In this document: in pieces, positions 24,661-46,513 of the stretch
Layout: each line of letters begins with the position of its first letter
Position numbering within the stretch: position 1 is the first letter of the stretch
Assembly (NCBI GenBank): GCA_963827955.1
Contig: CAWHDJ010000018.1
Span: forward strand, 1,245,297-1,309,296
Direction: 5' to 3'
Origin: an uncultured delta proteobacterium
Lineage (GTDB): Bacteria; Myxococcota_A; Polyangia; Polyangiales; Polyangiaceae
DNA: 64,000 nucleotides
The notes under the pieces: generated by a model
What the model was told of the DNA's origin: nothing
The model's input: the letters and a program-made list of their open reading frames with translations, nothing else
The model's database searches: none
Program-made: the position numbers and the translations under genes

Positions 24661-24840
24661 AAACAAACCGAACCGCGCCCGGAGCGAGCCGCCGTTCACG
24701 GCGGCTCGCGGAGGAAGCGGGTGCCCGGGCCCTGCAAGACGGCCCCTGTCTTTCCAGAGGCAGGATGGCTAAAGCTGAGGCCCCCGCTTCCTCCGCGAGC
24801 CCGCCTTCGGCTTGCTCGCTCCGGGCGCGGTTCGGTTTGT
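24661..24840. repeat. Nested palindromic intergenic element, family 2, copy A (about 180 bp). It abuts the start codon of the next gene.
   Basis: 27-bp TIRs acaaaccgaaccgcgcccggagcgagc / gctcgctccgggcgcggttcggtttgt. Inner inverted repeat cgcggaggaagcggg…cccgcttcctccgcg. The central region is unique. Confidence 0.7.
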
Positions 24841-26142
24841 ATGCGTCCTCGTGTCCTCCTCGCCCTGCCGCTAGCCCTCCTCCTCGCGCCGCGGTCCGCG
24901 CGCGCCAACATGGCCAAGGCCGTCATCGAGGGCGAGCGCGCCGGTGTCATCGCCCCGGAGAAGGCCACCGCCGTGCGCGTCGACCGGGAGACGCTCGACT
25001 TCGTGGCCGGGCCCGACCTCGCCTCGGCGGCGGTGACGGCCCGATACTGGCTCACCAACGCCGGCGCCTCCCCTGATGGCGTCGACGTCGCCTTCGTCTA
25101 TGTGCGGTCGGAAGAGGCCGGCGGCTTGGGCCTGGGCGACCACGCCGGCGTCGCGCTCGACGACGGCGCGCAGAATCCCGTTCCGCGCGGTCACCGACGT
25201 GGACCTGCTCCGAAATCGGCTCTCGGCGTGGCTCAAGGCGCACCCCCTCGTCGACGGAGCCCTGCCTGCGGCCGAAGCGAACGACGCCGCTGCAGGGGCC
25301 GAGCTGGCGCGGAACGTCGAGGCGGCCGGCGGCCGTTGCGACGGGCCCTGCCCGGGCCTCGTCCGGTGGTACCGCGACACCGACACCAATCAGCCGCCGC
25401 TGGTCGACGAGGCCGAGGTCCGCGGCGCCGCGCGCGAGGCCATCCCTGGCGCCGAGGACGACATCGCGCGCGGCTGGTCCACAATCCCGGGCGCGCGCCT
25501 CGGCTTCCTCTTCTTCCACCTCGACCTCCCGCCCGGGGCCATGCGCAGCGTCGTCGTCCGCTACCGGCAGCGCGCCTCGGTCGACCGCGCCGCGCACGTC
25601 AACCCGACGTACCGCTTCGACTACCTGCTCTCGCCGGCGAAGCGCTGGGCCGCCTTCGGTCCGATCGACGTCACCGTCCGCGTGCCGGAGGACGCGCGCT
25701 TCGCGTCGACGCTCCCGTTCCACGCCGAGGGCGGCGTCCAGCGCGCCGAGCCCCAGGCTTGCCGGAGGGCGAGCTCTCCTTCGAGGCGATGTCCATGCGG
25801 GGCCTCTGGCTCGGGATGACCGAGCCGCGCGGCTACTGGATCATCCTGATGATCGCGATGGCGGCGGTGACGGCGCTCGTCGGCGCCGCTGCCGGGTATT
25901 TGGCGCGCGCGCGATCCGGGTGGCGGCGGGTGGCCCTGCCGATCGTGACGGCGGGCCCGCTCGCCGCGGTGTGCAACGTCGCGGTGCTCGTCCTGCTCCT
26001 GGCGGCGTTCCCGCCCGCCGGGCTGGGGTTCGGCTACGCCGGCCTGATCGGCGGCGTGCTGCTCGTCCTGATCTCGGTCCCCGTCGGGGCCGTCGCCGGC
26101 GCTGTCTCGGCGGCCAGGGGCGCAAAGCAGCCGGCGGATTGA
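24841..26142 (+). CDS. Hypothetical secreted protein with C-terminal transmembrane helices. It spans three frames.
   Basis: Signal MRPRVLLALPLALLLAPRSARA. C-terminal TM segments (WIILMIAMAAVTALVGAAAGYL…). Confidence 0.45.
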   Translation: MRPRVLLALPLALLLAPRSARANMAKAVIEGERAGVIAPEKATAVRVDRETLDFVAGPDLASAAVTARYWLTNAGASPDGVDVAFVYVRSEEAGGLGLGDHAGVALDDGAQNPVPRGHRRGPAPKSALGVAQGAPPRRRSPACGRSERRRCRGRAGAERRGGRRPLRRALPGPRPVVPRHRHQSAAAGRRGRGPRRRARGHPWRRGRHRARLVHNPGRAPRLPLLPPRPPARGHAQRRRPLPAARLGRPRRARQPDVPLRLPALAGEALGRLRSDRRHRPRAGGRALRVDAPVPRRGRRPARRAPGLPEGELSFEAMSMRGLWLGMTEPRGYWIILMIAMAAVTALVGAAAGYLARARSGWRRVALPIVTAGPLAAVCNVAVLVLLLAAFPPAGLGFGYAGLIGGVLLVLISVPVGAVAGAVSAARGAKQPAD

Positions 26143-26182
26143 AGTTGCCGAGCGCGGTCACAAGAGCGTACCTCTCGGGGCC

Positions 26183-26786
26183 ATGCGCACCCTGCTCCCG
26201 CTCGGCGTCGTCCTCGCCGCCCTCACGGGTGGCTGCGCCATGAGCATCCCGCAGGCCACGCCGTATCCCAGGGCGCCTTCGCCGGCGGAGCCCGCACCCG
26301 GCCGCTCCTTGTGCGAGCGGACGGCCGTCGCCGCCCGGAGCCTCTCCAGCGCGCAGGCCGCCGGCGGGTGGACGTTCGGCGCCATCGGCGTCGCCGCGAC
26401 CGGCACCGGCGTCATCGCGACCGTGGTGAACGACCAGCAGCCGCGCCTGATGGCGGCCGCAGGGCTCACCCTCGGCGGCGTCGCGCTCGGCATCGTCGCT
26501 TACCATCTCTTCCTCCGAATCCGCCGCCTCCGCCCGCCTCGGCCAGGCGGCGGACCTCGCCTTGCTCGACAAGAACGACCACCGCGCCTTCGAAACGTGC
26601 GTCCGCGCCAAGGCGGCGTGGGAGGTGTCGAAGGCGGACCCGGACGGGATCACGCGCGAGATGCTGGACCAGGAGGAGCGCGAGAACCGGAAGCTGCGGG
26701 AGGAGGTCGAGCGGCTCAAGCGGCAGGTGGGCGAGGCAGGCCCAGGGGAGGGTCAGGCGCCGGCGGTGACAGCGCCTGCGCGCTGA
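26183..26786 (+). CDS. Hypothetical lipoprotein. It has a frameshift near 26520.
   Basis: MRTLLPLGVVLAALTGGCAMS lipobox. Charged coiled C-terminus (EERENRKLREEVERLKRQV). Confidence 0.45.
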
Positions 26787-26842
26787 ATTAGCCCACGGTC
26801 GCCCCCGCCTGCCGCGCCCCCCGGTGCTACCATCCGCGCCCC

Positions 26843-27930
26843 ATGTCGCAGAGCCGCTTCGCGCCGCTCCTCCGGGAGGACCTCGCCGAGCTCCGCTCGT
26901 ACGAGCCACGTGCCGGCGCCTTCGCCGTCCGCCTCGACGCCAACGAGCCCCCGTCCCTGATCTCGCCCGAGGCCTCGGCCGCGCTCGCCCGCGCGATGGT
27001 CCCCCCGGCCTGGAACCGCTACCCCGACGCCCGCGCCACCGAGCTGCGTGCCGCCATCGCCGCCCGCTGCGACGCCTCGCCGGAGGAGGTGCTCGTGGGC
27101 ATCGGGTCGGACGAGGTGATCGCGCTCCTCCTGACGGCGCTCTGCCGCCCGCAGGGGAAGAACCCGGCGCCCGTCGTGCTCGCGCCCACGCCGACCTTCG
27201 TCATGTACCGGCTCAGCGCCCGGGCGCGGGGCTTCAAGGTCGTGGAGGTCCCCCTCGACGCGGCGTGGGACCTCGACGTCCCGGCGATGCGCCGCGCCGT
27301 GGAGCTGATGCGCCCGAACCTCGTCTTCCTGGCCACGCCGAACAATCCGACGGGTCAGCGCATGTCCCTCAATCGGCTGGAGGCGGTCGCCGCCGCCGCT
27401 TCCTCTGCGCTCGTCGTGATCGACGAGGCGTACGTCGACTTCGCCCAACAGAAGCAGATCCACCTCCGCCGCGCGTGCCCCAACGTCGCCGTCCTCCGCA
27501 CCCTCTCCAAGATCGGCTTCGCGTCGCTCCGCGTGGGCTGGATGATCGGGCCGGCGAGCTCGTCGCCGAGATCGACAAGGTGCGCCAGCCCTACAACCTC
27601 CCCGTCCCCGTGCAGCGCGGCGCCCTCCACGTCCTCGAGCACATGGGGGACGAGGTCGCGCGCGCCTGCGCCGCCGTCGTGGCGGAGCGCGAGCGGCTCG
27701 CGGCTGGGCTCGCCGCGCTCGGGCTCGGCGTGACGCCGAGCGACGCCAACTTTCTCTGGGTCGAGACGAAGGGGCCGGCCGGCGACGTCTGCGAGGCGCT
27801 CGCGTCCCGCGGCGTGCTCGTCAAGAGCTTCCACGCGAGCGGCGGCCGGCTCCTCCGGCGCCTGCGCATCACGGTCGGGCTCCCCGCCGAGAACGACCGG
27901 CTGCTCGAAGGAATCGCGCGGTGCGCGTAG
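26843..27930 (+). CDS. hisC: Histidinol-phosphate aminotransferase family (class II PLP aminotransferase). It has a frameshift near 27545.
   Basis: RLDANEPP…, ATPNNPTGQ, LVVIDEAYVDF, LRTLSKIGFASLRVGW (PLP-Lys context). About 360 aa. Confidence 0.6.
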
Positions 27931-29023
27931 CCGCCGCCCTCCTCACGGCCCTCGCGGCGGTCGCGCTCGCCGGCTGCGGCGAGGGCGCCGTGGTGCGCAT
28001 CGTCGACGGCCGGCCCGTGCGCGGGCGCTTCATCCCCGAGACGGCGTACGCGCTCTACGCCCACGGCGCCGAGGCCGAGGCCGCCGGCGACCTGGGCGGC
28101 GCGATCGCCGCGTTCCAGCTCGCCGTCGCCGAGGATCCCGAGAGCCCCGAGATCTGGACCCGGCTCGGCGCGCTCCGGTGCTGGACGGCCCCCGTGGACA
28201 CCGTCCCGCCCGCCGCGGAGGTCGCCTTCGCCCGCGCGGCGAAGCTCGACCCATCCTATGGCCCCGCCCACCGGGAGCGCGCCCGCTGCCTGCTCTCGAA
28301 GAACGGCGCCTCTCCGGAGACCGCGCTCGCCGAGGCCGAGCGCGCGCTCGCGCTAATCCGGACGACCTCGGCACCGCGCTCGTCCGCGCCGCGGCGCTCG
28401 CGCGTGCGCGCCGCGGCGACGATGCGCGCCTCGCGTACCTCGCCGCCGCCGTCCGCCGCCCCGGCGATCGCGAGGCCTGGCGCGCGCTCCTCGACTTCTT
28501 CGCCCGCACACGCGCGGACGTCGCCGCGGTCGTCGGCGCCGAGCACGCCAATCTCCTGGCCCTCCGCCGAGCGGCGCCCCTCGCGCCCGTCGACGCGGCG
28601 CTCCGCGCGGGCGACCTCGCGGAGGCCCGGCGCCTCGCCCTCCGGGCCCGCCTCCCTGCCGGCGAGCTGGCCGTGCGCGCCGCCGCCCTCGGCCGCGCGC
28701 CGCTCGCCCGCGAGCAGGCCGCGCTCGTGATCGGCGCCGACCCTGGAGACGCCTCCGCGCGCATCGCCCTCGCGGCCGCCGCCGACCTCTTCCGCGACCC
28801 CACCGCGCTCGACGCGGCGGTGCGCGGCGTCCCCCGCCGGAGCACGGCCCCCTCACCGCTCGCGCGCCTCCTCTTCGCCGAGGTCCTGGCCCGCCGCGCC
28901 GGCGCCAACGCCGTCCAGGCCTGGCTCGGGCCCACGCTCCCCGCCACCGGCGACGACCCCCTCCTCGCCGCCACCGAAGAGCGCGTCCGCACGGCCATCG
29001 CCGGCAGAGCGCCCGGCCGGTAG
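27921..29023 (+). CDS. TPR-like lipoprotein. It has a frameshift near 28350.
   Basis: MRVAAALLTALAAVALAGCGEG lipobox. Ala/Leu/Arg-rich helical repeats. Confidence 0.45.
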
Positions 29024-29083
29024 CGATCACTCCGGCCCTCACTCCCCAGCCCCATGGGCGTTACCCTGCCGGGAGCGCTCCAC

Positions 29084-29250
29084 AAACGCCATCCTAACCG
29101 CGACCGGAGCGAGCCGCCGAAGGCAGGCTCGCGGAGGAAGCGGGGGGTGCGGCTTCGCATGACGCGCCGTCGAGCAGACCTGCGGCCCCCGCTTCCTCCG
29201 CGAGCCGCCGTGAACGGCGGATTGCGAAGGGCGCGGTTCGGATGGCGGTT
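29084..29250. repeat. Nested palindromic intergenic element, family 2, copy B
   Basis: aaacgccatcctaaccgcgaccggagcgagccgcc…cgcggaggaagcggggggtgcggcttcgcatgacgcgccgtcgagcagacctgcggcccccgcttcctccgcgagccgccgtgaacggcgg… The core is almost identical to 46326..46490. Confidence 0.7.
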
Positions 29251-29378
29251 GTCGAGCGCCCCGGCGGGCTCTCGGCCCGATTGCGCCGGGGCGCGGGCGC
29301 GCAACGCTCGGAGGGCGTGACCAGGGCTCGACGGGCGCACGGCTGCGCCGGCCGGGTGGCCACGGAGAGCGTTGCCCG

Positions 29379-31872
29379 ATGAGCGAGCGAACGGAGCCGG
29401 CGTGGCTCGACTTACTGGGCATCGCTTTGCTCGCAGCGGTCTACCTCGGCCTCGCCCGGCTGGGGCTCGCGATGGACGCCATCGGGGGGTTCGCGACCCT
29501 GGTCTGGGTGCCGTCGGGCATCGCGCTCGCCGTGATCCTGAGGTTCGGGCGTCGCCTGTGGCCCGGCGCCTTGATCGGCTCCTTCATCGCCAACCTGCTC
29601 TCCGCCGCGCCGGTCCCGGTCGCGCTCGCGATCGGCGCCGGCGACGCGATCGAGGTGCTGACCGCCGCCCTCCTGCTCGAGCGCGCCTGCTACCGCCCCG
29701 CGCTCGACCGCCCGCGCGACGTGCTCGCCCTGGTCGCGTTCGCCGCGTTGCTCGCGTCCGCGCTCGGCGCCTCCATCGGGGTGCTCGCCCTGCTCGCCGG
29801 GCGCGTCCTCCCGGCGGCGACCGCCGCCGTCGCCTTTCGCGCGTGGTGGCTCGGCGACGCCGCCGGGATCCTCGTCGTGACGCCGCTCGCGTCCGTCGGC
29901 TGGGCGCACCTCCCCCCGCTCACGGTGAAGCGCGCGCTCGAAGCGGCCGGCGTGCTCGCGGCGCTCTTCGCCGTCGCCGCCTTCGTGTTCTTCGGCCCGG
30001 GCCCGCAGCCCTCGCCGTTCTGGCACCCGTACCTGGTCTACCTCGTGCTCCTCTGGGCGGCGCTGCGCTTCGGCCAGCACGGCGCGACGATGACCGTCTT
30101 CTTCGCCGCGCTCCTGGCCATCTGGGGGACCGCGACGGGCCACGGCCCCGCGCTCCGGCCGACGCTCCACGAGAGCCTCGCCAACCTCCAGCGATTCATG
30201 GTCGTCTTCGCGGTGACGGCCCTCTGCCTCGGCGCCGTCATCGTCCAGCTCCAGCGCGTCTCGGTGGAGCGCGCGGGCCTCCTCGACGCGCAGCGGGAGG
30301 CGCTCGCGCGGATCGGCGCCGCGGAGCAGCGCGGGGCGCTCCTCGCCCTCCTGCTCGACCAGTCGAACGACGCCGTCGTGGTCCGGGAGATCGGGGACGG
30401 CATCGTCTACTGGAACCAGGGCGCGGAGCGGCTCTACGGCTTCTCCGCCGGCGAGGTGCGCGGCAAGACCTCGCGCGCGCTCCTGCACACCGAGCTCCCG
30501 AGCGGGCTCCCCATGTCGAGCGTCGACGCCGCCCTCGTGGCCGACGGGCACTGGGACGGCGAGCTCTTCCAGACGACGCGCGACGGGCGCAGGCGCTGCG
30601 TCGAGAGCCGGCAAGTGCTCAGCCGCTTCGGCGACGGGCCGGCGCTCGTGCTGGTGACGAGCCGCGACGTCACGGCGCGCAAGGAGGCGGAGGCGGAGCG
30701 GGAGCAGCTCCTCGAGAGCGAGCGCGCGGCGCGTGGCCTCGCGGAGCGGGAGGCGCGCAGCAAGGACGAGTTCGTGGCCACGCTCTCGCACGAGCTTCGC
30801 ACGCCCCTCAACGCCATCCTCGGCTGGGCCTCGATGCTCCGCGGCGGGCGGCTCGACGCCGAGGCGTCCGCGCGGGCGCTCGAGACCATCGAGCGCAACG
30901 CGCGCGCCCAGGCGCAGATGGTCGAGGACCTGCTCGACGTGAGCCGGATCGTCTCGGGCAAGCTCCGCGTCGACGTCCGGCAGATGAACCTCTGCGAGGT
31001 CGTCGAGGCCGCGATCGCGTCCCTCCAGCCGGCCGCCGCCGCCAAGCGGATCCGGATTCGAGCGGGTGATCGACCCGCTGGCGTGCGAGGTCGAAGGCGA
31101 CCCGGCGAGGCTCCAGCAGGTGGTGTGGAACCTCGTCGGCAACGCGATCAAGTTCACCCCGAAGAGCGGGCACGTGCGCGTCGTCGTGCAGAGGTCCGGC
31201 TCGTACGCGGAGGTCGTCGTGCGCGACGACGGCCCCGGGATCGCCGCCGAGTTCCTCCCCCACCTCTTCGAGCGCTTCCGCCAGGCCGACGCATCGAGGA
31301 CGCGCCGCCACGGCGGCCTGGGCCTCGGGCTCGCGCTCGTGAAGCACCTCGTGGAGATGCACGGCGGCACCGTCGGCGTGGAGAGCGAGGGCGAGGGGAA
31401 GGGGGCGACGTTCGTCGTCCGCCTGCCGATCTGCCCCGTGGTCTCGCGAGGCACGGAGCCCAGCGCGCCGGCGGTCCGCGAGTCGCTCAAGGGGGTGAAG
31501 GTGCTCGTGGTGGACGACGAGGAGGACACGCGCGAGCTCGTCCGGCGCGTGCTGTCGGAGAGCGAGGCGGAGGTCGTGGCGGTCGGCTCCGCCGCCGAGG
31601 CGCTCGACGAGGTGCCGCGCTTCCGCCCCGACGTGCTCCTCAGCGACATCGGCATGCCGCACCAGGACGGCTACCAGCTCCTCCGCGCGCTCCGGGCGCT
31701 CGGCGAGGACCGGGGCGGCAAGACGCCCGCCGCCGCGCTCACCGCGTACGCGCGCCCCGAGGACCGCCTCCACGCCCTCCGCGCCGGCTACCAAATCCAC
31801 GTCCCCAAGCCGGTCGACGTGACCGAGCTCTGCACCGTGGTGGCGAGCCTGGCGGGGCGCATCTCGACATGA
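29379..31872 (+). CDS. Hybrid sensor histidine kinase (MASE1 membrane sensor, PAS, HisKA, HATPase_c, receiver). It has a frameshift near 31060.
   Basis: Seven or more TM helices at the N-terminus. H-box LSHELRTPLNAILGW. G-boxes in the second frame (DDGPGI…GGLGLGLALV). Receiver with D (VLLSDIGMP) and K (IHVPKP). Confidence 0.75.
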
Positions 31873-31918
31873 GGTCGAAGGGAGAGCGCCGAGGCCGCGC
31901 AAGGTATACGCTTGGGGC

Positions 31919-32350
31919 GTGGACGAAGGGTCTCCCCGCGGAAGCGTGCGCATCTTGGTGGTCGACGACGACGCCGACCATCGCGCCACCCTCTGCAGCG
32001 TTCTGGAGGAGGCCGGCTACCGCGTCGAAGGTGCCCCGCAGGGGCGCGCGGCGCTGGACCGCATGCTCGCCGGCGACTTGCCGGATCTCGTCCTGCTCGA
32101 CATGTGCATGCCGGTCATGGACGGCTGGGCGTTCTCGGCAGAGCTCCACCAGCACCCGCGCCTCTCCCGGATCCCCGTCGTGGTCATGTCCGGACGGGGA
32201 GAGTGCACGCTCAGCGCAGCCCCCGTCTCCGCGGGGTACCTCCTCAAGCCGCTCGATCTGCACCAGCTCCTCGAGATGATCTCCACCTGCCTGTGGAGGT
32301 ACGAGCAGCGGAAGATGGCCAGAGGCGGCGGCGACGAGACGCTCGGCTGA
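31919..32350 (+). CDS. Single-domain response regulator (receiver)
   Basis: VRILVVDDDADHRATL…LVLLDMCMPVMDG…YLLKPLD. Confidence 0.7.
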   Translation: MDEGSPRGSVRILVVDDDADHRATLCSVLEEAGYRVEGAPQGRAALDRMLAGDLPDLVLLDMCMPVMDGWAFSAELHQHPRLSRIPVVVMSGRGECTLSAAPVSAGYLLKPLDLHQLLEMISTCLWRYEQRKMARGGGDETLG

Positions 32351-32370
32351 GAGCGACGCCGGGGGCGCGG

Positions 32371-33501
32371 TCAGGACAGCTCGCCGTCGATCGCCGCGTG
32401 GAGCGCGACGAGCGCCTTCTCGAAGCGCCCGAGGCGCACGCCCGGGTTGTGCCGCACGCCGCGCTGGATGCCCTCGCCGATGGCGAAGTCCTCCTCGAAG
32501 ACGCGCAGCAGGAGGGCGAGGTTCTTCTCCCAGTAGGCGCGCGCCTTGTCGGTCGCCGGCGCGCTCGGCACCAGCATGACCTGATCGATCCACGTCTCGT
32601 CCGTGCCGTGCGGATGGAAGGTGAACAGCACGACGTGGTCGGGCTCGACGAGCACCATCGCGTTCGGGAAGAGGTAGTACACCACCACCGCGTGCGGGCG
32701 TAGCTCCCAGCTCTCTTCGGGCGCGGTGGAGAGGTCCTTGATCGAGCGCCTCGGCGCGACCAGGCGGAGGTTCCGGCCGAACGACTCGAAGAGGCCCGCG
32801 TGGTCGAAGAAGGCCGGGTAAATCGAGTCCCTGTGCGCGACGCGGAGGTGGTAGCCCTCGCAGAACCCTTCGATCGCCACCTTCCAGTTCATCGCCCGGC
32901 GCCAGCGGCGGCGGTCGAAGGGGACGTGGGAGGCGAGCGCGAGGCCGGCGATGTCGTCGCCGAGGGGCGGCTCGTCGCTGGGGGACGGCATCGCGACGGG
33001 CGCGCCCGCCGACGGCGTGACCCAGACGAGCCCGTGGCTCACCTCGACCGGGAGCGGCACGAGGCCGCTCGCGTCGCGCACGAGCGTCGGGAACCCTTCC
33101 TCGTGCGGCACGCCGAGCAGGCGCCCGTCGAGGCGGTAGCTCCAGCCGTGGTAGGGGCAGACGAGGGCGCGCGCCGAGCCGGTCTCCGCCGCGCACAGGC
33201 GCGTGCCGCGGTGCCGGCACACGTTGAGGAAGGCGCGCAGCGCGCCGTCGTCGCCTCGGACCAGGAGGACGGGCAGGCCCCCGGCGTCGATCGAGAGGAA
33301 GTCGCCCGGCCGCGCGACCTCACCGACGTGCGCGATGAGCACGGGGTGCCGGCCGAGGAGCGCCTCCTCGCGGCGGAGGCGCGCTGGATCGTGGTAACGC
33401 CGAGCGTCAATCACGACGTCTTGCTCGGCCATGTCGGTCGTCCGCGCCTCGATCTGGGCAAGGAGGCGACGCACGGTCGCGCGCTGGGTCTCTGGGCGCA
33501 T
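32371..33501 (-). CDS. Rieske non-heme iron oxygenase, alpha subunit-like
   Basis: Rieske CRHRG…CPYHGW. Mononuclear-iron region EGYHLRVAHRDS…; about 375 aa. Confidence 0.75.
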   Translation of the reverse strand: MRPETQRATVRRLLAQIEARTTDMAEQDVVIDARRYHDPARLRREEALLGRHPVLIAHVGEVARPGDFLSIDAGGLPVLLVRGDDGALRAFLNVCRHRGTRLCAAETGSARALVCPYHGWSYRLDGRLLGVPHEEGFPTLVRDASGLVPLPVEVSHGLVWVTPSAGAPVAMPSPSDEPPLGDDIAGLALASHVPFDRRRWRRAMNWKVAIEGFCEGYHLRVAHRDSIYPAFFDHAGLFESFGRNLRLVAPRRSIKDLSTAPEESWELRPHAVVVYYLFPNAMVLVEPDHVVLFTFHPHGTDETWIDQVMLVPSAPATDKARAYWEKNLALLLRVFEEDFAIGEGIQRGVRHNPGVRLGRFEKALVALHAAIDGELS

Positions 33502-33763
33502 GCGCCCCGAGTATACCCGTGGAAGGCCGCCGGCTGGGGAACGCGACCCCCACTGGATCGATCGCCGCCCACCCTCTCGCCGCATGAACACCGCGTTTCT
33601 ACCGCGAAAGTCGGGGTCCGGAGCCTGGCACGCCGCTCGCCAAGGGAGCGGCCATGCTCGACCGGACCCGCTTCGCCGCTGCGACACGTATCCTCCTCGG
33701 CGCCCTCGCCTTCCCCGCGATCCTCGCCGGCTGTATCGGCGTCGAGGACCCGAACGAGCCCCT

Positions 33764-34582
33764 TCACTCCCCCGGGACGATGATCGCTTCCCCGCTCCGC
33801 ATCCGGCCGGGGTTGAACAGGTTCGCCTTCCGGTGGTGGTTCGCGTGCCAGTAGATGCCGTGCCACAGCACGTTGCCGACGCGGTAGTACCCCGTGTTCA
33901 AGTTCACGGGGCGGAAGTCGCGGCTGGGCGAGAACGCGTTGTGCGTCGACCAGTTGAAGTGGATGAGGTGCAGGATCCCGAGGATCGTGGCCGGCACGAA
34001 GAAGCGGAAGAACGCCAGCGGGCCCAGGAACGTGTACCAGCAGGCGAGGAGCGCGAGCATCGTCGAGAAGCTCAGCGCGGCGCGGATCTTCTCGAACCGC
34101 CGCGTCACGGACGAGTTGCCGTAGAGGTCGAAGTAGGCGGCCTGGAGCTGCCGCTCCACGTTCACGAGCGTGAAGACGACGTAGCGCCAGTAGCTCGGCA
34201 TCACCGGGTGCGGGTCCTTGACCGTGTCGTCGGAGTAGCGGTGGTGCCGCTGGTGGATCACCTCCCACGAGGCGAAGCGCGTGAGCACCACGACGCCGCA
34301 GATCTCGCCGACGATCCGGTTGACCGCGCGCGGGAAGTTCCCGTGCGAGCAGTTGTGGATCCAGACGCTGCACAGGATCTGCGCCTGGCAGACGAGGGGC
34401 AGGAGCAGCCAGTAGCGCGCGTCCCACGTCTCGATGAGCGGCCGGTGGCCGGCGTAGCGCATCGCCGCCACGAGCGCGACGCAGAGCACGAAGTAGAAGC
34501 CGTCGTACCAGACGTAGAAGTAGCGGTTCTTCCGGAGCTGCGTGTTGGGGAGCGAGGTCAGCGTGGAGACGATGGCGGTCAC
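33764..34582 (-). CDS. Membrane fatty-acid desaturase-family protein (three His boxes)
   Basis: HNCSHG, HQRHHRY, HGIYWHANHH, with four predicted TM helices. Confidence 0.7.
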   Translation of the reverse strand: MTAIVSTLTSLPNTQLRKNRYFYVWYDGFYFVLCVALVAAMRYAGHRPLIETWDARYWLLLPLVCQAQILCSVWIHNCSHGNFPRAVNRIVGEICGVVVLTRFASWEVIHQRHHRYSDDTVKDPHPVMPSYWRYVVFTLVNVERQLQAAYFDLYGNSSVTRRFEKIRAALSFSTMLALLACWYTFLGPLAFFRFFVPATILGILHLIHFNWSTHNAFSPSRDFRPVNLNTGYYRVGNVLWHGIYWHANHHRKANLFNPGRMRSGEAIIVPGE

Positions 34583-35806: not shown

Positions 35807-35825
35807 GGACATCGAGGGGGGAGTC

Positions 35826-37277: not shown

Positions 37278-37372
37278 GGCCGAAATGTGGGGACGGGCGG
37301 CGTGCTGTGCAAGTGGACACCTCCCCGGCGCTCCGACGCGGACGGCAGCGTTCAGAAGATGGGGCATTCGCG

Positions 37373-37585
37373 CTAAATCACCGAGCACGATCCTCGTTCA
37401 AGGAGCCGGGAGCAACGTATGGAACCCCGGGCGTGAGCCCGCGGACCGGAGCCGCGCGCGTCAGCACGCGGAGGCCGCGGCACAGCCCCTGACGTCATGG
37501 TCCCCGCGCTCACGCGCGAGGCTCCGGTCCGCGGGCTCACGCCCGTGGGTTCCATCGTTGTGTCAGGATCGCACTCGGTGATTTA
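37373..37585. repeat. MITE-like palindromic element, family 1, copy 2
   Basis: About 97% identical to 2472..2687 over its whole length, with the same TIRs and inner stem. Confidence 0.8.
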
Positions 37586-37595
37586 GCATCCGAGC

Positions 37596-39483
37596 ATGCT
37601 TATCCGACGACGACTGCTTCGCCTCGCGCCGCTTGCCGCGCTCGTCCTCCTCATCCCCGCCGCCTGTGGGGGAACCGCGCAGCAGCAGGAGGGGACGGCG
37701 GGGGCGGGGGGAGCGAGGGGAACGGGGGGAGCGCCGGGGACGGGGGGAACGGGGGGACAGGGGGAGCGTCGCCCTCCGGGGGCGACGGTACGTCCTGCGC
37801 CCACGCGGTCGACATCACCGAGAGGGTCGCCGGAGGCGCCACCTACACCGGTCGGGCGACGGCGGACGGCGACTTCCAGGGACTCTGCGCCTCGCAGAAG
37901 GGCAGCATCGAGTACCTCCGCTTCGACGCGAAGCCCGGCAACTACCGGATCTCCCTCTCCGGCACGAGCGACGACACGGCCCTGACCGCCGTGCTCGACG
38001 TCCGGACCGACTGCGCGTCGTCCGCGAGCGAGATTGGCTGCGACCCCCACGCGGTGTCTCCCCCACCCTGGTCGGCGTGGACGAGGCCGGCCCCGTCTTC
38101 CTCGTGCTCTCGGGCGACTGGTACGGCAAGGGGTACGAGATCCGCGTCGAGCCGGCGATGCCTTGCACCGCCGACTACGACTGCACCCAGAGCTACCCAG
38201 AGACCCTGTGCGACACGACGACCGGGGCCTGCTACGCGCCGCTCGCCTGCGCCGCGGGCACCGCGGACTGCGACGCCAATCCGGACGACGGGTGCGAGAC
38301 CGACACCACCAAGGACACGGCGAACTGCGGCGCCTGCGGCGTCTCCTGCCAGGGCCCGAACGTGAAGAGCGGCACGTGCGCGGCCTCGTCCTGCGCGCTC
38401 ACCTGCGACACCGGCTACGCGGACTGCGACGAGCACCCCACGAACGGGTGCGAGACCTACCTCCTCGGCGACGGCGCGAACTGCGGTGCCTGCGGACACG
38501 ACTGCATGCACGGCGGCTGCGCGGCCTCGATCTGCACCGCGCCCCCGGTCGCGCTCGGCACGACCAGCACGGTGGCCCCGAACGGCCCCGTCGCGCTCGA
38601 CGCCACCAGCGTGTACGTCGCCGGAGAGCTCACCCAGAACATGGGCGGAGTGATCTCCGTCCCCAGGTCGGGCGGCGCCGCCACCCTGCTCGTGAACGAC
38701 GACTGCAACGTCGCATCTCTCGTCGTCGACGCGACGACGGTCTACTGGGCCGGCAGGGACTGCAACACGGTCGACGCGGCGATCAAGTCGGCGCCGGTCG
38801 CGGGCGGCGCGACGACGGTGCTCGCGAGCGACCAGGTCTACGAGCCGGCAGGGCTCCTCGCGGACGCGACCACCCTCTACTGGTACGACGCGGTCATCGA
38901 AGCGATCCTCTCGCTCCCCAAGGCCGGCGGCGAGCCGAGCATCCTCGTGGGCGTGCAGAAGAACGGCGGCGCGGCGGAGATCCTCGGGCTCGCCGCCGAC
39001 GCGACGACGCTCTACTTCACGACCGCGGACGACATCGCGAACACGTGGGAGTCTCCTCCATCCCCAAGTCCGGCGGCGCGCCCAAGACCCTCGCGCCGCT
39101 CCCGCCGGGGTCCTCCGGGCAGCTCGCGATTCTCGGGCACGGACCTCTACGTCGCCACCGACACGAACATCGCCCACATCTCGACCACGGGCGGCTCCCT
39201 CACCCCGTTCACCAGCGCGAACCTGGGGTCGGCCGACCCCTCCTTCACGCCGGCGGTCACCTCGATGGCGATTGCGGGCGGGAACCTCTACTGGTCCGCG
39301 GGCGCCACCAGCGCCATCGCGCTCTGCCCGACCCCCGGAGGCATCTGGAGGATCCCGCTCGCCGGCGGCCCCGCCGTCGGGCTCGCGAGCGACGAGTCCC
39401 CCGGGCCCATCGCGGCCGACGCGAGCGGCGTCTACATGAGCGCGACCTGCTCCGGCGCCGTGGCCCTCCACGCGGGGCCCTAG
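37596..39483 (+). CDS. Secreted lipoprotein, tandem paralog 1. Domain order: PPC-like beta-sandwich, Cys-rich DCD…DGCET repeats, C-terminal beta-propeller. It spans three frames.
   Basis: MLIRRRLLRLAPLAALVLLIPAACGG; …CETDTTKDTANCGACG…; propeller blades ATTVYWAG / ATTLYWYD / GTDLYVATD / GGNLYWSAG. Confidence 0.7.
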
Positions 39484-39502
39484 CGTGCGCTAGCCTCCGA
39501 TC

Positions 39503-41321
39503 ATGTCTTACGGAAAATCCTTTCGCTGCCTCGCTTCGCTGGCCGCGCTCGCCTTCCTCGTCCCCGCCGCCTGCGGGGGCAACGCCAACCAGAACGGGAC
39601 CGGGGGAGGGCCCTCCGGGGGCGACGGCACGTCCTGCGACCAGGCGATTGACATCACCGAGGTGGTCGACCGCGACGGCACCTACTCCGGCCAGGCGACG
39701 GCGACCGGCAGCTTCGACGGACTCTGCGCCTCGCAGAAGGGCAGCATCGAGTTCCTCCGCTTCGACGCGACGCCCGGCAACTACGAGATCACCCTCTCCG
39801 GGTCGCACGACAGCGCGGACGTGAACGCCGTGCTCGACGTCCGGACCGACTGCACGTCGTCCGCGAGCGAGATTGGCTGCGACCCCCACGCGGTGTCTCC
39901 GCCCACCCTGGTCGGCGTGGAGAAGGCCGGCCCCGTCTTCCTCGTGCTCTCGGGCGACTGGTACGGCAAGGGGTACGAGATCCGGGTCAAGCGGTCGCCA
40001 AAGTGTACCGCCGACTACGACTGCACCGCGAGCTACCCAGAGGCCCTGTGCGACACGAAGACCGGGGCCTGCTACGCGCCGCTCGCCTGCGCCGCGGGCA
40101 CCGGGGACTGCGACGCCGACCCGAGCGACGGGTGCGAGACCGACATCACCAAGGACCCGGCGAACTGCGGAAACTGCGGCGTCCACTGCAAGGGCCCGAA
40201 CGCGACGGGCGGCACGTGCGCGGCCTCGTCGTGCGTGCTCGCCTGCGACAGCGGCTACGCGGACTGCGACAAGGACCCCGTGAACGGGTGCGAGACGTAC
40301 CTCCTCGAGGACGGCGCGAACTGCGGCGCCTGCGGAAAGGACTGCGTGCACGGCGGCTGCCAGGCCTCGACGTGCGGCGCGCCCCCGGTCGCGCTCGGCA
40401 CGACCAGCATCGTCTCCTCGAACAGCGGCATCGCGGTCGACGCCACCAACGTCTACGTCGCCGGACAGTTCGACGCGAACACGGGCGGGGTGCTCTCCGT
40501 CCCCAAGGCGGGCGGCGCCGCCAAGGTGCTCGTGAACGACGACTGCGACATCAATTCTCTCGTGGTCGACGCGACGACGGTCTACTGGGCCGGCACGGAC
40601 TGCAACACGGGCAACTCGGCGATCAAGTCGGCGCCGATTGCGGGCGGCGCGACGACGGTGCTCATGGACGACACGACCAACACCCAGTATCCGGCCGGGC
40701 TCATCGCCGACGCGACCACCCTCTACTGGTACGACTCGAACCAGGGCACCATCTACTCGATGCCCAAGACAGGCGGCGGTCCGCAGATCCTCGCGAGCCT
40801 GCAGGGCGGACAGCAGATGCTCGGATTCGCCGCCGACGCGACGACGCTCTACTTCACGAGCGGCGACTACTGCGTGGGCACGGCGGAGCTTCCAATCGGT
40901 GCCCAAGACGGGCGGCAACCCCGAGAACATCGCGCCGCTCCCGGCGGGGTCCTCCGGGCAGCTCGCGATCTCGGGCACGGACCTCTACGTCGCCACCGAC
41001 ACGGACATCGCCCACATCTCGACCACGGGCGGCTCGCTCACCAAGCTCACCAGCGCGCACCTGGGGCCGGCCGACCCCTCCGTCACGCTGACGGTCACCT
41101 CGATGGCGATCGCGGGCGGGAACCTCTACTGGTCCGAGGGCGCCACCAACCCCTCCGTGTTCTGCCCGATCCGGGGAGGGATTTGGAAGATCCCGCTCGC
41201 CGGCGGCGCCGCCGTCGGGCTCGCGAGCGAGGAGTCCCCCGGGCCGATCGCGGCCGACGCGAGCGGCGTCTACATGAGCGCGACCTGCTCGGGCGCCGTG
41301 GCCCTGCGCGCGGGGCCGTAG
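39503..41321 (+). CDS. Secreted lipoprotein, tandem paralog 2 (same architecture). It has one frameshift near 40880.
   Basis: MSYGKSFRCLASLAALAFLVPAACGG. It is about 75-85% identical to paralogs 1 and 3 in the Cys-rich and propeller regions. Confidence 0.7.
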
Positions 41322-41477
41322 CCTGGCAGCCCATTGAAATACGAAAGAAGAGGACCGCAAGGGACGCAAGGGACGCAAGGATTCAGGTCAATTTGCCTTT
41401 CCCTTGCGCCCCTTGCGCCCCTTGCGCCCTTGCGGTCTCTCTCGGGTTTCTTCAGCGAGCTGCGCTAGGCTCCGATC

Positions 41478-43305
41478 GTGTCTTACGGACGATCCTTTCG
41501 CCGCCTCGCTTCGCTTGCCGTGCTCGCGCTCCTCGGCCCCGCCGCGTGTGGGGGCACCGCCAACAAGGAAGGGGGGGCGGGGGGAGGGCCCTCCGGGGGC
41601 GACGGCGCGTCCTGTGCCCAGGCGATTGACATCACCTCGGCGGTCGCCGGCGGCGGCACCTACTCCGGTCAGGCTACGGCGGAGGGCGACTTCCAGGGAC
41701 TCTGCGCCTCGCAGAACGGGAGCATCGAGTACCTCCGCTTCGACGCGGCGCCCGGCAACTACGAGATCTCCCTCTCCGGCCCCCACGACGACGCAGCGGC
41801 GACCGCCGTGCTCGACGTCCGGACCGACTGCGCGTCCTCCGCGAGCGAGCTGCAGTTGCATCCCCCACGCGCCGTCCACCAACATCTTCGTGGGCGTGAG
41901 CAAGCCCGGCGGCGTCCTCCTCGTGCTCTCGGGCGACTGGTACGGCAAGGGGTACCGGCTCCGGATCGAGCCGTGGCCGAAGAGGTGCACCGCCGACATC
42001 GACTGCGCCGGGCGCTTCCCGCAGACGCTGTGCGCCACGAAGACCGGGATCTGCTACGCGCCGCTCGACTGCGCCCCGGGCACGGCGGACTGCGACGCCG
42101 ATCCGGACGACGGGTGCGAGGCCGACACCACCAAGGACACGGCGAACTGCGGCGTGTGCGGCCTCTCCTGCCAGGGCCCGAACGTGAAGGACGGCACGTG
42201 CGCGGCCTCGGCCTGCACGCTCGCCTGCGAGCCCGGCTACGCGGACTGCGACACGAACCCCGCGAACGGCTGCGAGACGTACCTCCAGGGCGACGGCGCG
42301 AACTGCGGCGCCTGCGGAAACGACTGCACGCACGGCGGCTGCGCGGCCTCGAGTTGCACCGCGCCCCCGGTCGCGCTCGGCACCACCACCGCCCCGGACC
42401 CGAACGGCCCCATCGCGCTCGACGCCGCCAACGTCTACGTCGCCGGACAGATCAGCCCGAACATGGGCGGGGTGATCTCCATCCCCAAGTCGGGCGGCCT
42501 CGCCACCATGGTCGTGAGCGACGACTGCAACATCGCATCTCTCGTGGTCGACGCAGGGACGGTCTACTGGGCCGGCGCGGACTGCAATACGCTCACCGGG
42601 GCGATCAAGTCGGCGCCGATCGCGACCGGGGGGACGAAGGTCCTCGCGACCCAGAGCGTCTACAATCCGACCGGGCTCATCGCCGACGCGACCACCCTCT
42701 ACTGGCACGAAACGTCGTTGGGCGCGATCCTCTCGCTCCCCAAGGCCGGCGGCCAGCCGAAGGCCGTGGCGAGGCTGGTGGACAACGGCGTCGAGATGCA
42801 GGTCTCCGGGCTCGCCGCCGACGCGACGAACCTCTACTTCACGGCCAGGGACTACATCACGAGCACCTGGGCGCTCTACTCGGTGCCCAAGTCCGGCGGC
42901 GCGCACGAGGTGCTCGCGACGCTCCCGCCGGGGTCCTCCGGGCAGCTCGCGATCTCGGGCACGGACCTGTACGTCGCCACCGACACGAGCATCGCCCACA
43001 TCTCGACCACGGGCGGCTCGCTCACCACGTTCGCCGGGGCGAACCTGGGGTCCGCCGACCCCACCACCACGCTGGCGGTCGCCTCGCTCGCGATCGCGGG
43101 CGGGAACCTCTACTGGTCGGCGGGCGCGACCAAGGCCATCGCCATCTGCCCGACCCCCGGCGGGATCTGGAAGATCCCGCTCGCCGGCGGCGCCGCCGTC
43201 GGGCTGGCGAGCGACGAGTCCCCCGCGCCGATCGCGGCCGACGCGAGCGGCGTGTACATGAGCCAGACCTGCTCCGGCGTCTTCGCGCTGCGCGCGGGTC
43301 CGTAG
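41478..43305 (+). CDS. Secreted lipoprotein, tandem paralog 3 (same architecture). It has a frameshift near 41850.
   Basis: MSYGRSFRRLASLAVLALLGPAACGG. The C-terminus …GIWKIPLAGGAAVGLASDESPAPIAADASGVYMSQTCSGVFALRAGP is shared with the others. Confidence 0.7.
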
Positions 43306-43351
43306 CCCTATATAAGGAGGGGCGTACAGCGACGCTGGAATCGGCGGCGCG

Positions 43352-43810
43352 GGGGATCGGATCGGACACGCGCGTGATCCGATCGGCGGCACTTCCGATC
43401 GGATCGACGGCACGCTCGATCGGATCGGGGGCGTCCTCGATCGGATCGACGGCGTGCTCGATCCGATCGGAGGCGCGCTCGATCGGATCGACGGCGTGCT
43501 CGATCCGATCGGAGGCGCGCTCGATCGGATCGACGGCGTGCTCGATCCGATCGGAGGCGCGCTCGATCGGATCGGGGGCGTCCTCGATCGGATCGACGGC
43601 GCGCTCGATCGGATCGACGGCGCGCTCGATCGGATCGAGACCGTGTTCGATCCGATCGTGAGCGCGTTCGATCGGATCGGCGACGTCTTCGATCGGATCG
43701 AACGCGCCCCCGATCGGATCGGTGATCTGTTCGATCGGATCGGCGGCATCTTCGATCCGATCGAAGGCGCGACCGATCGGATCGAACACGGTTTCGATCG
43801 CACCTCGCGC
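43352..43810. repeat. Tandem array of about 22 copies of a 21-bp unit (consensus ctcgatcggatcgacggcgcg). It is open in all six frames and rich in CGATCG palindromes.
   Basis: Visible 21-bp periodicity. On the plus strand it reads LDRIDGV / LDPIGGA heptads, on the minus strand DPIERAV heptads. Confidence 0.85.
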
Positions 43811-44105
43811 GCGTGGGCGCACCCTCTGCGCGCTCCGCGCACATCGTCGCCATCGCCGATTCAAATCCGTGATCGGTGACGCGAAAAGCACGTTCCCGAC
43901 GTCGATTTATGGGTGATGGATCTGCGGAGTAAGATTCGGATTCAAATGCAACGAAAAAGCGATGGTCCACCTTGCCGATCGTCCGAGTCGAGCACATAGT
44001 CCAGGGGTCAGGAAGACGAGCGCTGCGCGGAGGGGTCTCGCTCGATTCGCGAGCGGGGCCTTCGTTCATTTCAACCGCGCGCTGCGCTCTCGAAGGGAGG
44101 TCACG

Positions 44106-44750
44106 ATGGCAACCGGTCCGTTGCGCTACCGCGCGATCCTCAACATCCTCATGCTCGATTCGAGCGACGCCGACCGCGACGACTTCGTCAACGGCATCAA
44201 CCAGGTGCTGCCGCAGTCGTCGCTCTACAAGAGCAACCCGGCGATCCAGAGCGCGTTCACGAACGTGCTCTCGACCCTCGCCACGTACAAGACCGCGTCG
44301 AAGACCGCGGCCGGCAGCGCCCAGCAGGCGAGGTCCGACGCCAACGCGGCGCAGGGCGCGAAGAAGGCCAACGACAAGGCGATCGTCTTCTTCAGGGACC
44401 TGGTCGAGAACGACGCGCAGAGCCCGGACGACATCGCCTCCGCGGGGCTGAAGCCGTACCTCGGCAAGCCGCCCCCTCCGCCGCTGGTCCCGCCGGACAC
44501 GATCGACCTCAAGCCCGGGAGGAAGGGGTCGGGCGTCACCACGGCGTCGGTGCGCGAGCCGTCGGGTGTCCGCCGCCGCTACGCCGCCCAGATCAGCCTC
44601 GACGGCACCACCTGGACGGCGCTGGCCGGGGGCGGCAAGTCCCGGAAGCTCGTCGGCAAGAGCGGCGGGACCGCCTGGGTCCGGTTCGCGCTGGTGCGCG
44701 GGCAGTCTCAGTCGGACTGGTCGAGCGCCGTCCCCATCACGTTCCCGTGA
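44106..44750 (+). CDS. Hypothetical protein (214 aa)
   Basis: SD gggagg 7 nt upstream of the ATG at 44106. The promoter region upstream (43880-44100) has unusually low GC. C-terminal beta-strand-rich region. Confidence 0.55.
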   Translation: MATGPLRYRAILNILMLDSSDADRDDFVNGINQVLPQSSLYKSNPAIQSAFTNVLSTLATYKTASKTAAGSAQQARSDANAAQGAKKANDKAIVFFRDLVENDAQSPDDIASAGLKPYLGKPPPPPLVPPDTIDLKPGRKGSGVTTASVREPSGVRRRYAAQISLDGTTWTALAGGGKSRKLVGKSGGTAWVRFALVRGQSQSDWSSAVPITFP

Positions 44751-44754
44751 CAGG

Positions 44755-46308
44755 ATGACAGCCCCCCGAGCGCGCGGCGCCCTTTCGGCGCCGCCGCTCG
44801 GGTGGCATCATTGGGGGGTGAGCTTCCTCCAATCCGAACACACTTGGACACTCGGCCGGGCCATCCTCGCGCGGGTCGCGCTCGCCGGCGCCGTCGCGAC
44901 GGCCGCAGGGTGCGGCGGATCGCCACAGGAACAGCAGCACCAGCCGCCCCCTCCGCCGCCGACGCCGGCGAAGTTCACCGTGACGGTCGCGGCGAACCCG
45001 AACAGCGTGTGCTCGGCGATCGTCACGTTCAGCCTGAAGGGCGCGACGTCGGCGCACGTGGAGGCCACGGGCGGCGAGGATCACCTGACGACGCCGGAGC
45101 AAATGGTCGACGACACCGGCAAGATCTCCGTCCTGGGGCTCGCCGCCAAGACGGACTACGAGTTCGTCGTCGTCGCGAAGGCGGACGGCAAGACCCGGTC
45201 GTCGTCCCCCGTCTCGTTCAAGACGTCGCCGCTCCCCTCGGAGCTCCTGGACGCGCACTTCGTCGTCACCGCGCACAGCGGGAAGCCTTCGCCGACCGGC
45301 TACTACCTCGTCGAGGGCACGGGCCTCAACGTCGTCGCCTTCGACGGCAAGGGCGTCATCCGCTGGTACCGCCAGTTCCACTACTTCGCCGCCGAGACGA
45401 AGATGCAGCCCGACGGCACCTTCACCACCTTCAACGGCGCCACGATGGGCTTCCAGGCCCTCCCCGGCCAGTACGTGCGCTACCACCCCGACGGCACGCT
45501 CATCGGGAACTACCAGGCCGGCTCGCCGGACACGAGCGAGCCGGGCAACCCCACCGTCTACACCGACAACCACGATCTGTTGCTCACCAGCAACGCGGGC
45601 GGGGACCACTTCCACATGATCACGTACGAGATGCGGCCCCTGGCGTCGGCCACCGCCGCCTGGCACATGGTCCAGCGGACGAGCATGGACGGCGCCATCG
45701 AGTTCGAGTGGAAAACCTGGTCGCGCTTCTCGGAGGCCGATCTGACCGACCCGCTCCCCGGGGACGCCGGGCAGGACTTCGACCACATGAACGCGCTCTC
45801 GTTCGACCCGTCCGACGACAACTACATCGTGTCGCTGCGCAACCTCGACGCGGTGGTGAAGGTCGACGCGGGCACGGGCGACGTGCTCTGGCAGATCGGC
45901 GGCAAGCAGTCGACGATGAAGGTGGACAAGGATCCGCTCACGTCCTTCACCGGCCAGCACGACGCGCACCTCTTGCCGAACGGCAACCTCCTGATGATCG
46001 ACAACGGCGTCCTGCACACGCCGCCCGAGAGCCGCGCGGCGGAGTACGCGATCGACACGAAGGCCGGCACCGCGACGCTCGTCTGGGAGTACCGCCACAG
46101 CCCGCCCATCTTCACGTCGGTCCTCGGCAGCGCGACCCGGCTCTCGAGCGGCAACACGCTCGTCGCGTTCAGCTTCATCGGCGTGGTCGACGAGGTGAAG
46201 CCGGACGGCACGCTCGTCTGGGAGGGCAAGGTCGAGGTCGGCACGGCGCCGCTGGAGGCGTACCGGGTGCTGCCGCTGCCGTCGCTGTACGAGTACGCCA
46301 CGCCGTAG
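44755..46308 (+). CDS. Arylsulfotransferase (ASST) family beta-propeller lipoprotein
   Basis: Lipobox AVATAAGCGG. Length and motifs (…YEMRPLASATAAWHM…LWQIGGKQSTMKVD…HDAHLLPNGNLLMIDNG) are consistent with the ASST family. Confidence 0.65.
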   Translation: MTAPRARGALSAPPLGWHHWGVSFLQSEHTWTLGRAILARVALAGAVATAAGCGGSPQEQQHQPPPPPPTPAKFTVTVAANPNSVCSAIVTFSLKGATSAHVEATGGEDHLTTPEQMVDDTGKISVLGLAAKTDYEFVVVAKADGKTRSSSPVSFKTSPLPSELLDAHFVVTAHSGKPSPTGYYLVEGTGLNVVAFDGKGVIRWYRQFHYFAAETKMQPDGTFTTFNGATMGFQALPGQYVRYHPDGTLIGNYQAGSPDTSEPGNPTVYTDNHDLLLTSNAGGDHFHMITYEMRPLASATAAWHMVQRTSMDGAIEFEWKTWSRFSEADLTDPLPGDAGQDFDHMNALSFDPSDDNYIVSLRNLDAVVKVDAGTGDVLWQIGGKQSTMKVDKDPLTSFTGQHDAHLLPNGNLLMIDNGVLHTPPESRAAEYAIDTKAGTATLVWEYRHSPPIFTSVLGSATRLSSGNTLVAFSFIGVVDEVKPDGTLVWEGKVEVGTAPLEAYRVLPLPSLYEYATP

Positions 46309-46325
46309 GTCGCCGGGGCGTCAGC

Positions 46326-46490
46326 AAACGCAATCCGAACCGCGCCCGGAGCGTCCCGCCGAAGGCGGGACGCGGAGGAAGCGGGGGCTGCGGCTTCCAC
46401 GACGCGCCGTCGAGCAGACCTGCGGCCCCCGCTTCCTCCGCGAGCCGCCGTGAACGGCGGCTCGCTCCGGGCGCGGTTCGGATTGCGTTT
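46326..46490. repeat. Nested palindromic intergenic element, family 2, copy C. It lies between convergent genes.
   Basis: Perfect 28-bp TIRs aaacgcaatccgaaccgcgcccggagcg / cgctccgggcgcggttcggattgcgttt. Inner inverted repeat cgcggaggaagcggggg / cccccgcttcctccgcg. Confidence 0.75.
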
Positions 46491-46513
46491 TGTGGAGACT
46501 TGCGGTGCTGCGC

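Follow-up and report, generated by a model that had tools for sequence, protein, structure and literature searches.

A 64-kb stretch of DNA from an uncultured bacterium (hereinafter, the window) contains three copies of a palindromic element of 165-190 nt that has no conserved open reading frame (ORF) or coding capacity and is probably a non-autonomous miniature mobile DNA palindrome, of the kind represented by miniature inverted-repeat transposable elements (MITEs) and REPINs. The copies look like a new sequence family within a known class of bacterial miniature mobile repeats and, in this respect, are ordinary in kind. The COX1 matches (84% identity with metagenome bins and 73-77% with Minicystis, Sorangium, Chondromyces and Polyangiaceae), together with the G+C content of the window (72%), indicate that the host is an uncultured member of Polyangia (Myxococcota).

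The repeat family, its polarity and its fold

A search of the window with an nhmmer profile of the element yields exactly three matches, with E-values of 4.7e-54 (copy C), 4.9e-53 (copy B) and 9.8e-48 (copy A), followed by a next-best match at 0.31. The three related stretches that had been delineated in a sequence-only reading of the window are thus confirmed at the same coordinates. The copies and their parts are as follows:

46326-46490, plus strand: copy C, the best preserved, in the reference orientation (nhmmer, fold, alignment)
46326-46353, plus strand: copy C, left terminal inverted repeat (TIR), 28 nt
46354-46370, plus strand: copy C, hairpin 1 with the GAA loop, 17 nt
46371-46385, plus strand: copy C, left arm of the inner stem, 15 nt
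46386-46427, plus strand: copy C, centre, 42 nt
46428-46442, plus strand: copy C, right arm of the inner stem, 15 nt
46443-46462, plus strand: copy C, hairpin 2 with the TGAA loop, 20 nt
46463-46490, plus strand: copy C, right TIR, 28 nt
29084-29250, plus strand: copy B, oriented like C (nhmmer, alignment)
24661-24840, minus strand: copy A, inverted relative to B and C (nhmmer, inverted-repeat matches, alignment)
24687-24706: copy A, TGAA hairpin, first in plus-strand coordinates
24722-24782: copy A, centre, 61 nt
24798-24816: copy A, GAA hairpin, second in plus-strand coordinates

The TIRs and the inner stem that the copies had been said to share are borne out by word counts in the window. 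The 15-mer of the inner stem, CGCGGAGGAAGCGGG, occurs exactly six times, once per arm; when up to two mismatches are allowed, there are 10 matches compared to 1.5 expected, a number reached in 0 of 100 shuffles, and a 19-mer of the TIR matches five arms compared to 0.6 expected. Copies B and C are 90% identical (96% in the centre alone), and the shell of copy A, once re-oriented, shows 79-85% identity to B and C. With a fourth copy found in a metagenome (L001, see below), the family consists of sequences that are 75-91% identical across 165 nt, are embedded in unrelated flanks and come from four unrelated loci in two organisms. Beyond the ends originally drawn, the homology runs approximately 12-20 nt further in B, C and L001 (GGNGCGCTCCAC before AAACGC): the palindrome of copy B reaches outward to about 29072-29262, and weaker homology of copy C spans 46314-46502. 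The right outer arm of copy B is decayed, with TGCGAAGGGC at 29223-29232 vs CGCTCCGGGC in copy C.

The polarity of the element is set by two unlike sub-terminal hairpins, AGCCGCC-GAA-GGCGGGCT-like (hairpin 1) and AGCCGCCG-TGAA-CGGCGGCT (hairpin 2). Copy A, which the sequence-only reading had aligned in the wrong orientation, is inverted relative to B and C, as follows from the inverted-repeat matches (the left 80 nt of A are the reverse complement of the right 80 nt of C at 89% identity), the alignment and the strand-specific profile scores (177 bits on the plus strand and 98 on the minus strand for C, 174 and 83 for B, but 157 on the minus strand and 81 on the plus strand for A).

The centre, delimited by the inner-stem 15-mers, is 42 nt long in C, 43 nt in B and 61 nt in A, rather than approximately 60 and 75 bp as previously estimated. 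The part of the earlier claim that stands is that the centre of A is unlike that of B and C: there is no significant similarity between them in either orientation, with 130 to 846 of 2000 shuffles scoring equally well, and no second copy of the centre of A is present in any sequence retrieved for comparison. The proposal of a swappable module goes back to this single divergent copy and is not supported in that form. Internal length variants occur in Correia and ERIC elements. Nor is a variable centre unusual among repeats of this kind, as had been suggested: the length of Correia is listed as approximately 104-157 bp in Delihas's table (PMC3184786). The centre of A has a G+C content of about 54% over its A+T-richest 35 nt (a hand estimate), compared to 72% for the window, and carries its own 7-bp hairpin, CCTGTCT/AGGCAGG. 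It is located approximately 60 nt before the start codon that copy A abuts; a consensus promoter scan of this centre gave no promoter-like site.

Each copy is predicted to fold, as RNA or as single-stranded DNA (ssDNA), into a four-way junction, the arms of which are a 24-28-bp outer stem, the two side hairpins and an inner stem with 15 bp or more. The terminal arms measure 24 and 26 nt in A and 28 nt in C, with perfect pairing over 27-28 bp, and the right arm is degraded in B; the 15-bp inner stem of C can be extended to 22 pairs, including two G-T pairs. The RNA folding energies of the three copies range from -127 to -151 kcal/mol (z-scores of -10 to -16 relative to shuffles). For copy C, the predicted junction is perfect, with -151 kcal/mol as RNA (z = -16) and -98 kcal/mol as ssDNA (z = -13), and the RNA fold is nearly equal in energy on either strand (-151.3 vs -151.1 kcal/mol). 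The alternative fold is a single long hairpin, the two side hairpins being complementary also to each other. When the four copies, few and related to one another as they are, are aligned on the four-way junction, 92.3% of the pair cells are paired and eight pairs are changed on both sides, a combination reached in 0 of 500 shuffles, and every slid register is only 39-45% paired. One of the compensated changes, TC..GA in C and L001 vs AG..CT in A and B, falls within hairpin 1 and hence supports the local hairpin; L001 adds further ones, for example, CCTAACC/GGTTAGG.

Such strong retention of four helices through two-sided changes is what would be expected also of a structured small RNA gene family in which the four-way junction is a functional RNA, and the two inner-stem G-U pairs of B, C and L001, which become A-C mismatches on the opposite strand, are compatible with this possibility. 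Nevertheless, we consider this explanation very improbable. The near-perfect palindrome folds equally well on both strands, the consensus scan detected no promoter-like sites, the orientation relative to the neighbouring genes is mixed, and A has a different apical centre, the very part in which one would look for a specific function. Across the window, there are no Rfam matches at the gathering threshold, and at E-values up to 10 only generic models of hairpin miRNAs appear, on both strands and far below threshold (at best 56 bits vs the required 168).

Filled and empty sites and the case for mobility

The strongest evidence for mobility, a single case, is a presence/absence pair of orthologous loci. 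A metagenome scan identified one true copy outside the window, L001, on a 1.6-kb soil contig at a locus unrelated to those of A, B and C, between genes for a PuuD-like protein and a fatty-acid desaturase. The same metagenome contains L101, an orthologous gene pair (PuuD 87% identical, N-terminus of the desaturase nearly identical) in which the intergenic region is only 106 nt long and the element is absent. L001 has approximately 219 extra nt that hold the element and extend from directly after the PuuD stop codon to a conserved downstream hairpin; the downstream sequence, CTTCGCGG…GCTTGTCTTC…GACTTTGCCAAC…, aligns in both loci, and L101 has a small hairpin of its own. Apart from this difference between orthologous sites, the element has TIRs around a short core without a transposase gene and, at 165-190 nt, lies below the limit of about 400 bp for MITEs.

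Other copies were sought widely. A scan of 185,579 species genomes with paired exact seeds of the inner stem produced no matches. The TIR 19-mer was found at no fewer than 94 loci in species genomes, and those listed, an orthologous Sorangium gene among them, are all chance matches of one arm within coding sequence. Viral contigs yielded no matches, and neither did plasmids searched with blastn. The loci of relatives (L097-L113; approximately 214 kb, much of it redundant, with 77-85% PuuD or 84% COX1 identity) contain no copy, with L112 and L113 judged by gene maps alone (3-10-nt gaps beside PuuD); because these sequences lack the element, the family looks lineage-restricted.

We infer that the conserved shell, namely the 24-28-bp outer inverted repeat (longer in some copies), the two 17-20-nt hairpins and the inner stem of at least 15 bp, would be recognised in trans by an enzyme encoded elsewhere, with the apical centre free to differ between copies. 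Several observations weigh against this mobile-element interpretation. Four copies are known altogether, three in the window and L001, and their ends are ragged in the alignment. A symmetric-boundary scan of the four copies revealed no direct repeat consistent in length and position, that is, no target-site duplication; the junctions of L001 and L101 show none either, although the ragged ends leave room for a duplication of 2-3 bp. Neither an autonomous element nor a transposase whose ends match came to light; the window has a single transposase remnant, of the IS630 type (see below), which was rejected as a parent, its ends being unrelated to those of the element. The organisms of L101 and L001 share only 87% identity in PuuD, so that a deletion in L101 is possible. 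The copies may also have been passed on vertically for a long time, without recent movement, since C is as close to L001 (91%) as it is to B (90%). Finally, two-sided changes in a palindrome can arise via hairpin template switching or repair, with no need for selection.

The nature of the putative mobilising enzyme bears on a more specific possibility, that the sub-terminal hairpins are recognition sites similar to those of repetitive extragenic palindromes (REPs) and are cut and rejoined as ssDNA by an HUH tyrosine transposase, as in systems of the IS200/IS605 or REP-associated tyrosine transposase (RAYT) type, leaving no target duplication. The absence of a detectable duplication at the four copies fits such a mechanism, as do the predicted stability of the hairpins in ssDNA and their near-identical stems, GAGCCGCC/GGCGGCTC, with loops that are invariant in all four copies. 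REPINs are portrayed as two inverted REPs able to fold as one long hairpin (PMC3337134, PMC3116915), and REPs are marked by a tetranucleotide, GTAG or CGTC, that is conserved at one of the two palindrome ends (PMC3733652). Hairpin 1 of C and L001 starts with CGTC and ends with GACG, but this head is missing from hairpin 1 of A and B, which have CGAG/CTCG, and from hairpin 2, so that the diagnostic REP head is not consistently present in the family. The hairpins, 17-20 nt long, like-stemmed and symmetric in each copy, are parts of a larger unit, none being free-standing in the window, and neither REPINs nor IS200/IS605 are characterised by a long perfect outer TIR or an inner palindrome. No RAYT or TnpA gene was seen, and none of the 28 ORFs that were compared to Pfam, in a partial scan of the window, encodes a Y1 transposase. 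A survey of GTAG- and CGTC-tagged REPs does not mention myxobacteria, and to our knowledge REP/RAYT systems have not been described in Myxococcota. Taken as a full account of the family, this possibility appears unlikely. For the mobile palindrome in general, the sub-terminal hairpins and the lack of a duplication point in the direction of an HUH/RAYT-like single-strand mechanism (PMC3337134, PMC3733652), but the inconsistent GTAG or CGTC head does not.

A possibly related palindrome elsewhere in the window is relevant in this context:

11963-12050, no strand assigned: near-perfect simple palindrome, 88 bp, between convergent genes with stop codons at 11918 and 12124

This palindrome, originally placed at 11958-12047 and thought to share the flavour of the family, is not a family member by the nhmmer profile. 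What remains of the resemblance is its right terminus with the adjoining flank, 12043-12058 (ACAGCCATCCGAACCG, minus strand), which agrees with the right terminus of copy B in 15 of 16 positions, a similarity to the arms of B that only 1-4 of 1000 shuffles attain. The terminal pattern GCMATCCKAACCG is found in the window only at element ends (five matches vs 0.4 expected), and the 88-bp palindrome may be a relative with a shared terminus, perhaps a shared recognition end. These similarities can be extended to a modular Polyangia system in which a shell (the terminus GCMATCCKAACCG and the two hairpins) would be moved as ssDNA by a candidate HUH-type enzyme with exchangeable cores, three types of which would then be present in the window: the core of B and C, that of A and the simple palindrome of 88 bp. 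If correct, this would be the first REPIN/RAYT-like system in Myxococcota, with exchangeable cargo between recognition hairpins; beyond copy A, the support for it consists of the terminus shared with the 88-bp palindrome, and we consider it quite improbable.

Position at gene ends and possible effects on transcripts

The neighbours of every copy are ordinary chromosomal genes, which near A and B encode HMG-CoA reductase, a MASE1 histidine kinase and a secreted protein, and near C an arylsulfotransferase-like protein and a sigma-54 activator. As originally noted, each copy lies directly 3' of a plus-strand gene, the distance from the stop codon being 33 nt for A, 60 nt for B and 17 nt for C. 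The gap of copy A is measured from the true stop codon of HMG-CoA reductase, 24625-24627, with the C-terminus …TEGIQRGHMALHHRTTTAP* in the proper frame. Copy A indeed ends at the next ATG: its last base is 24840, and the start codon of a gene for a signal-peptide protein on the same strand is at 24841. Copy C nearly fills the space between convergent genes, the minus-strand stop codon being at 46514-46516. Both orientations relative to the upstream gene are represented, one in B and C and the opposite one in A and L001.

Reading-frame shifts are apparent near the 3' ends of two of the adjoining genes, at approximately 24400 (HMG-CoA reductase) and 46680 (sigma-54 activator), and are probably assembly indel errors, or else mark pseudogenes; errors of this sort could extend to the G and C runs of the elements themselves. 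The true C-terminus of the sigma-54 activator is in a different frame, with the stop codon at 46514-46516, and a spurious 826-aa ORF that crosses copy C results from the shift. The gene that precedes the element ends in ..GTAG in three of the four cases (stop codons at 29021-29023, 46306-46308 and, in L001, 452-454). The empty site L101 has GTAG as well (~1186-1188), and therefore this tetranucleotide was not brought by the element; it may be there by chance or hint at a target preference.

Copies of the mobile palindrome would land in intergenic DNA, a few to a few tens of bases past stop codons, in either orientation. When such an insertion is co-transcribed, its very stable hairpin or four-way junction, together with the T-rich tails, would probably act as a 3'-end barrier, either a weak bidirectional terminator or an exonuclease block, which would help insertions to be tolerated. 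A bidirectional barrier fits because T-rich tails follow a very stable stem on both strands, whereas strong obligatory termination does not, because copy A abuts a start codon with no promoter-like site nearby. The putative role in termination or mRNA stabilisation that was proposed in the sequence-only reading is plausible.

A stronger version holds that the element is a host-selected bidirectional terminator or mRNA-stabilising hairpin that spread for its effect on transcripts, with mobility being incidental. The distances of 17-60 nt past stop codons and the position of C and of the 88-bp palindrome, which fill gaps between convergent genes, are in line with such selection, as is the stable G+C-rich stem, after which both strands have T-rich tails (TTGCGTTTTG / TTGCGTTTGC and TTTGTATGCG / TTTGTTTGCC). 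Terminator-like mobile repeats are known, e.g., SPRITE (PMC3184786), and a consensus terminator scan picks out A and C, at either end and on either strand. The same scan does not flag B, in which the outer arm is decaying, and the T tracts are short (3-4 T) and themselves paired within the outer stem. A strong terminator in the position of copy A would silence the same-strand gene whose start codon it adjoins, for which no promoter-like site was found, and the orthologous locus L101 manages without the element, with a small hairpin of its own. On these grounds, we regard primary selection for the transcript effect as rather doubtful.

Positions at gene 3' ends, combined with imperfect palindromes that have conserved ends and a variable centre, might also be taken to suggest recombination sites of the integron attC type, as found 3' of gene cassettes. 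The integron core-site consensus is RYYYAAC / GTTRRRY, and the ends ..CCTAAC / GTTAGG.. of B and L001 agree with it at six of the seven bases. This explanation was rejected as extremely improbable on account of orientation, spacing and stem anatomy: attC sites, which have R and L boxes, form arrays of a single orientation beside intI, with one site for each small cassette, but A is inverted relative to B and C; instead of lying in a cassette array, the copies are 4.4 and 17 kb apart, with ordinary large genes of the chromosome between them, such as those for a 966-aa histidine kinase and HMG-CoA reductase; and the outer stem is continuous over 27-28 bp, without an unpaired central spacer or extrahelical bases. 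The two ORFs scanned between A and B (24841-26142 and 26792-27733) do not encode an integrase, the 17 kb between B and C having been scanned in part, and neither an integrase next to any copy nor an array was noted. A retron msr-msd reading was likewise rejected, with no reverse transcriptase noted next to any copy, no array and mixed orientations.

Other repeats and comparison with known systems

The window contains additional repeats that are distinct from the element described here:

2513-2661 and 37413-37560: second, unrelated nested-palindrome family, ~150 nt with 60-nt arms
4594-5375, minus strand: IS630-type DDE_3 transposase remnant
8440-8619, inverted: 180-nt copy of the IS630-type 3' end, 99% identical, 3.7 kb away

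Kinship of the element with the palindromes at 2513-2661 and 37413-37560 was rejected, the arms being not significantly similar. These two copies lie within a longer duplication of at least 220 nt with 96% identity, and the palindromes and their flanks may have been duplicated as one piece instead of the palindromes being inserted independently. The IS630-type end has no inverted partner in the window. Long in-frame tandem repeats are present at 2943-3719, 43249-43857 and 7047-7922 (a 21-nt period at two of these sites and a 12/18-nt period at one), and 37600-43300 is occupied by three tandem paralogous genes of about 1.9 kb, with segments 70-93% identical and no Pfam match. In a relative with 84% COX1 identity (L098, 9861-9956), a 96-nt palindrome of GCAAAGGC repeats is located between the COX2 and COX1 genes and represents a different hairpin repeat from the same clade.

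The literature searches turned up no REP or MITE family for myxobacteria, and none is described for Polyangia in the sources searched. Polyangia have very large genomes that have been poorly surveyed. Small palindromic repeats shape transcript ends, supply recombination sites and mark lineages. The profile and structure of the family would allow annotators to mask the element and avoid mis-called ORFs, such as the 826-aa ORF through copy C, and the profile is also a handle for finding the enzyme that moves the element. The four-way-junction design with one divergent core will not surprise a specialist; it adds a new family to a well-known class and opens no new question.

A REP unit is an imperfect palindrome of 20-40 nt that occurs in inverted doublets, with tens to hundreds of copies in a genome that also has a RAYT gene flanked by them. 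The REP/BIME-like label attached to the copies in the sequence-only reading (BIMEs being bacterial interspersed mosaic elements) captures a dispersed, non-coding, palindromic intergenic family next to gene 3' ends, with an insertion polymorphism between L001 and L101, but membership in the REP/BIME class as such is not supported, considering the unit of 165-190 nt and the lack of a consistently placed GTAG or CGTC head. MITEs consist of TIRs around a non-coding core and are often found at gene 3' ends, where they are co-transcribed and form long stem-loops, and some of them alter mRNA stability (PMC3184786). The element shows no sequence similarity to described MITE families. Compared to terminator-resembling dispersed repeats, it has the same kind of G+C-rich stem, rich in A on the 5' side and in T on the 3' side, that can be read on both strands, but the stem is far longer and branched, and copy A is located directly against a downstream start codon.

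In its general organisation, the element resembles MITEs such as Correia/NEMIS of Neisseria, ERIC of Enterobacteriaceae and Chunjie of Geobacter, all of which are non-coding, intergenic sequences of 100-200 nt with TIRs. It lies just 3' of genes in both orientations and folds into a long hairpin, as MITEs do (PMC3184786), and, as in MITE families, differs in presence between related genomes. Unlike MITEs, it has neither a visible target-site duplication nor a known parent insertion sequence and is more elaborate, the TIR, the two distinct sub-terminal hairpins and the inner palindrome together making up a four-way junction. Relative to REPINs and BIMEs, the differences are that the hairpins belong to a unit of 165-190 nt that also comprises an inner stem and an outer TIR of 28 bp, and that they have no consistent GTAG or CGTC head. 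The features in common with REPINs and BIMEs are the short G+C-rich hairpins in inverted pairs, which can fold locally or into one long hairpin and whose arms change together, and the extragenic location without target duplication, with BIMEs themselves being mosaics with variable motifs between the REPs.

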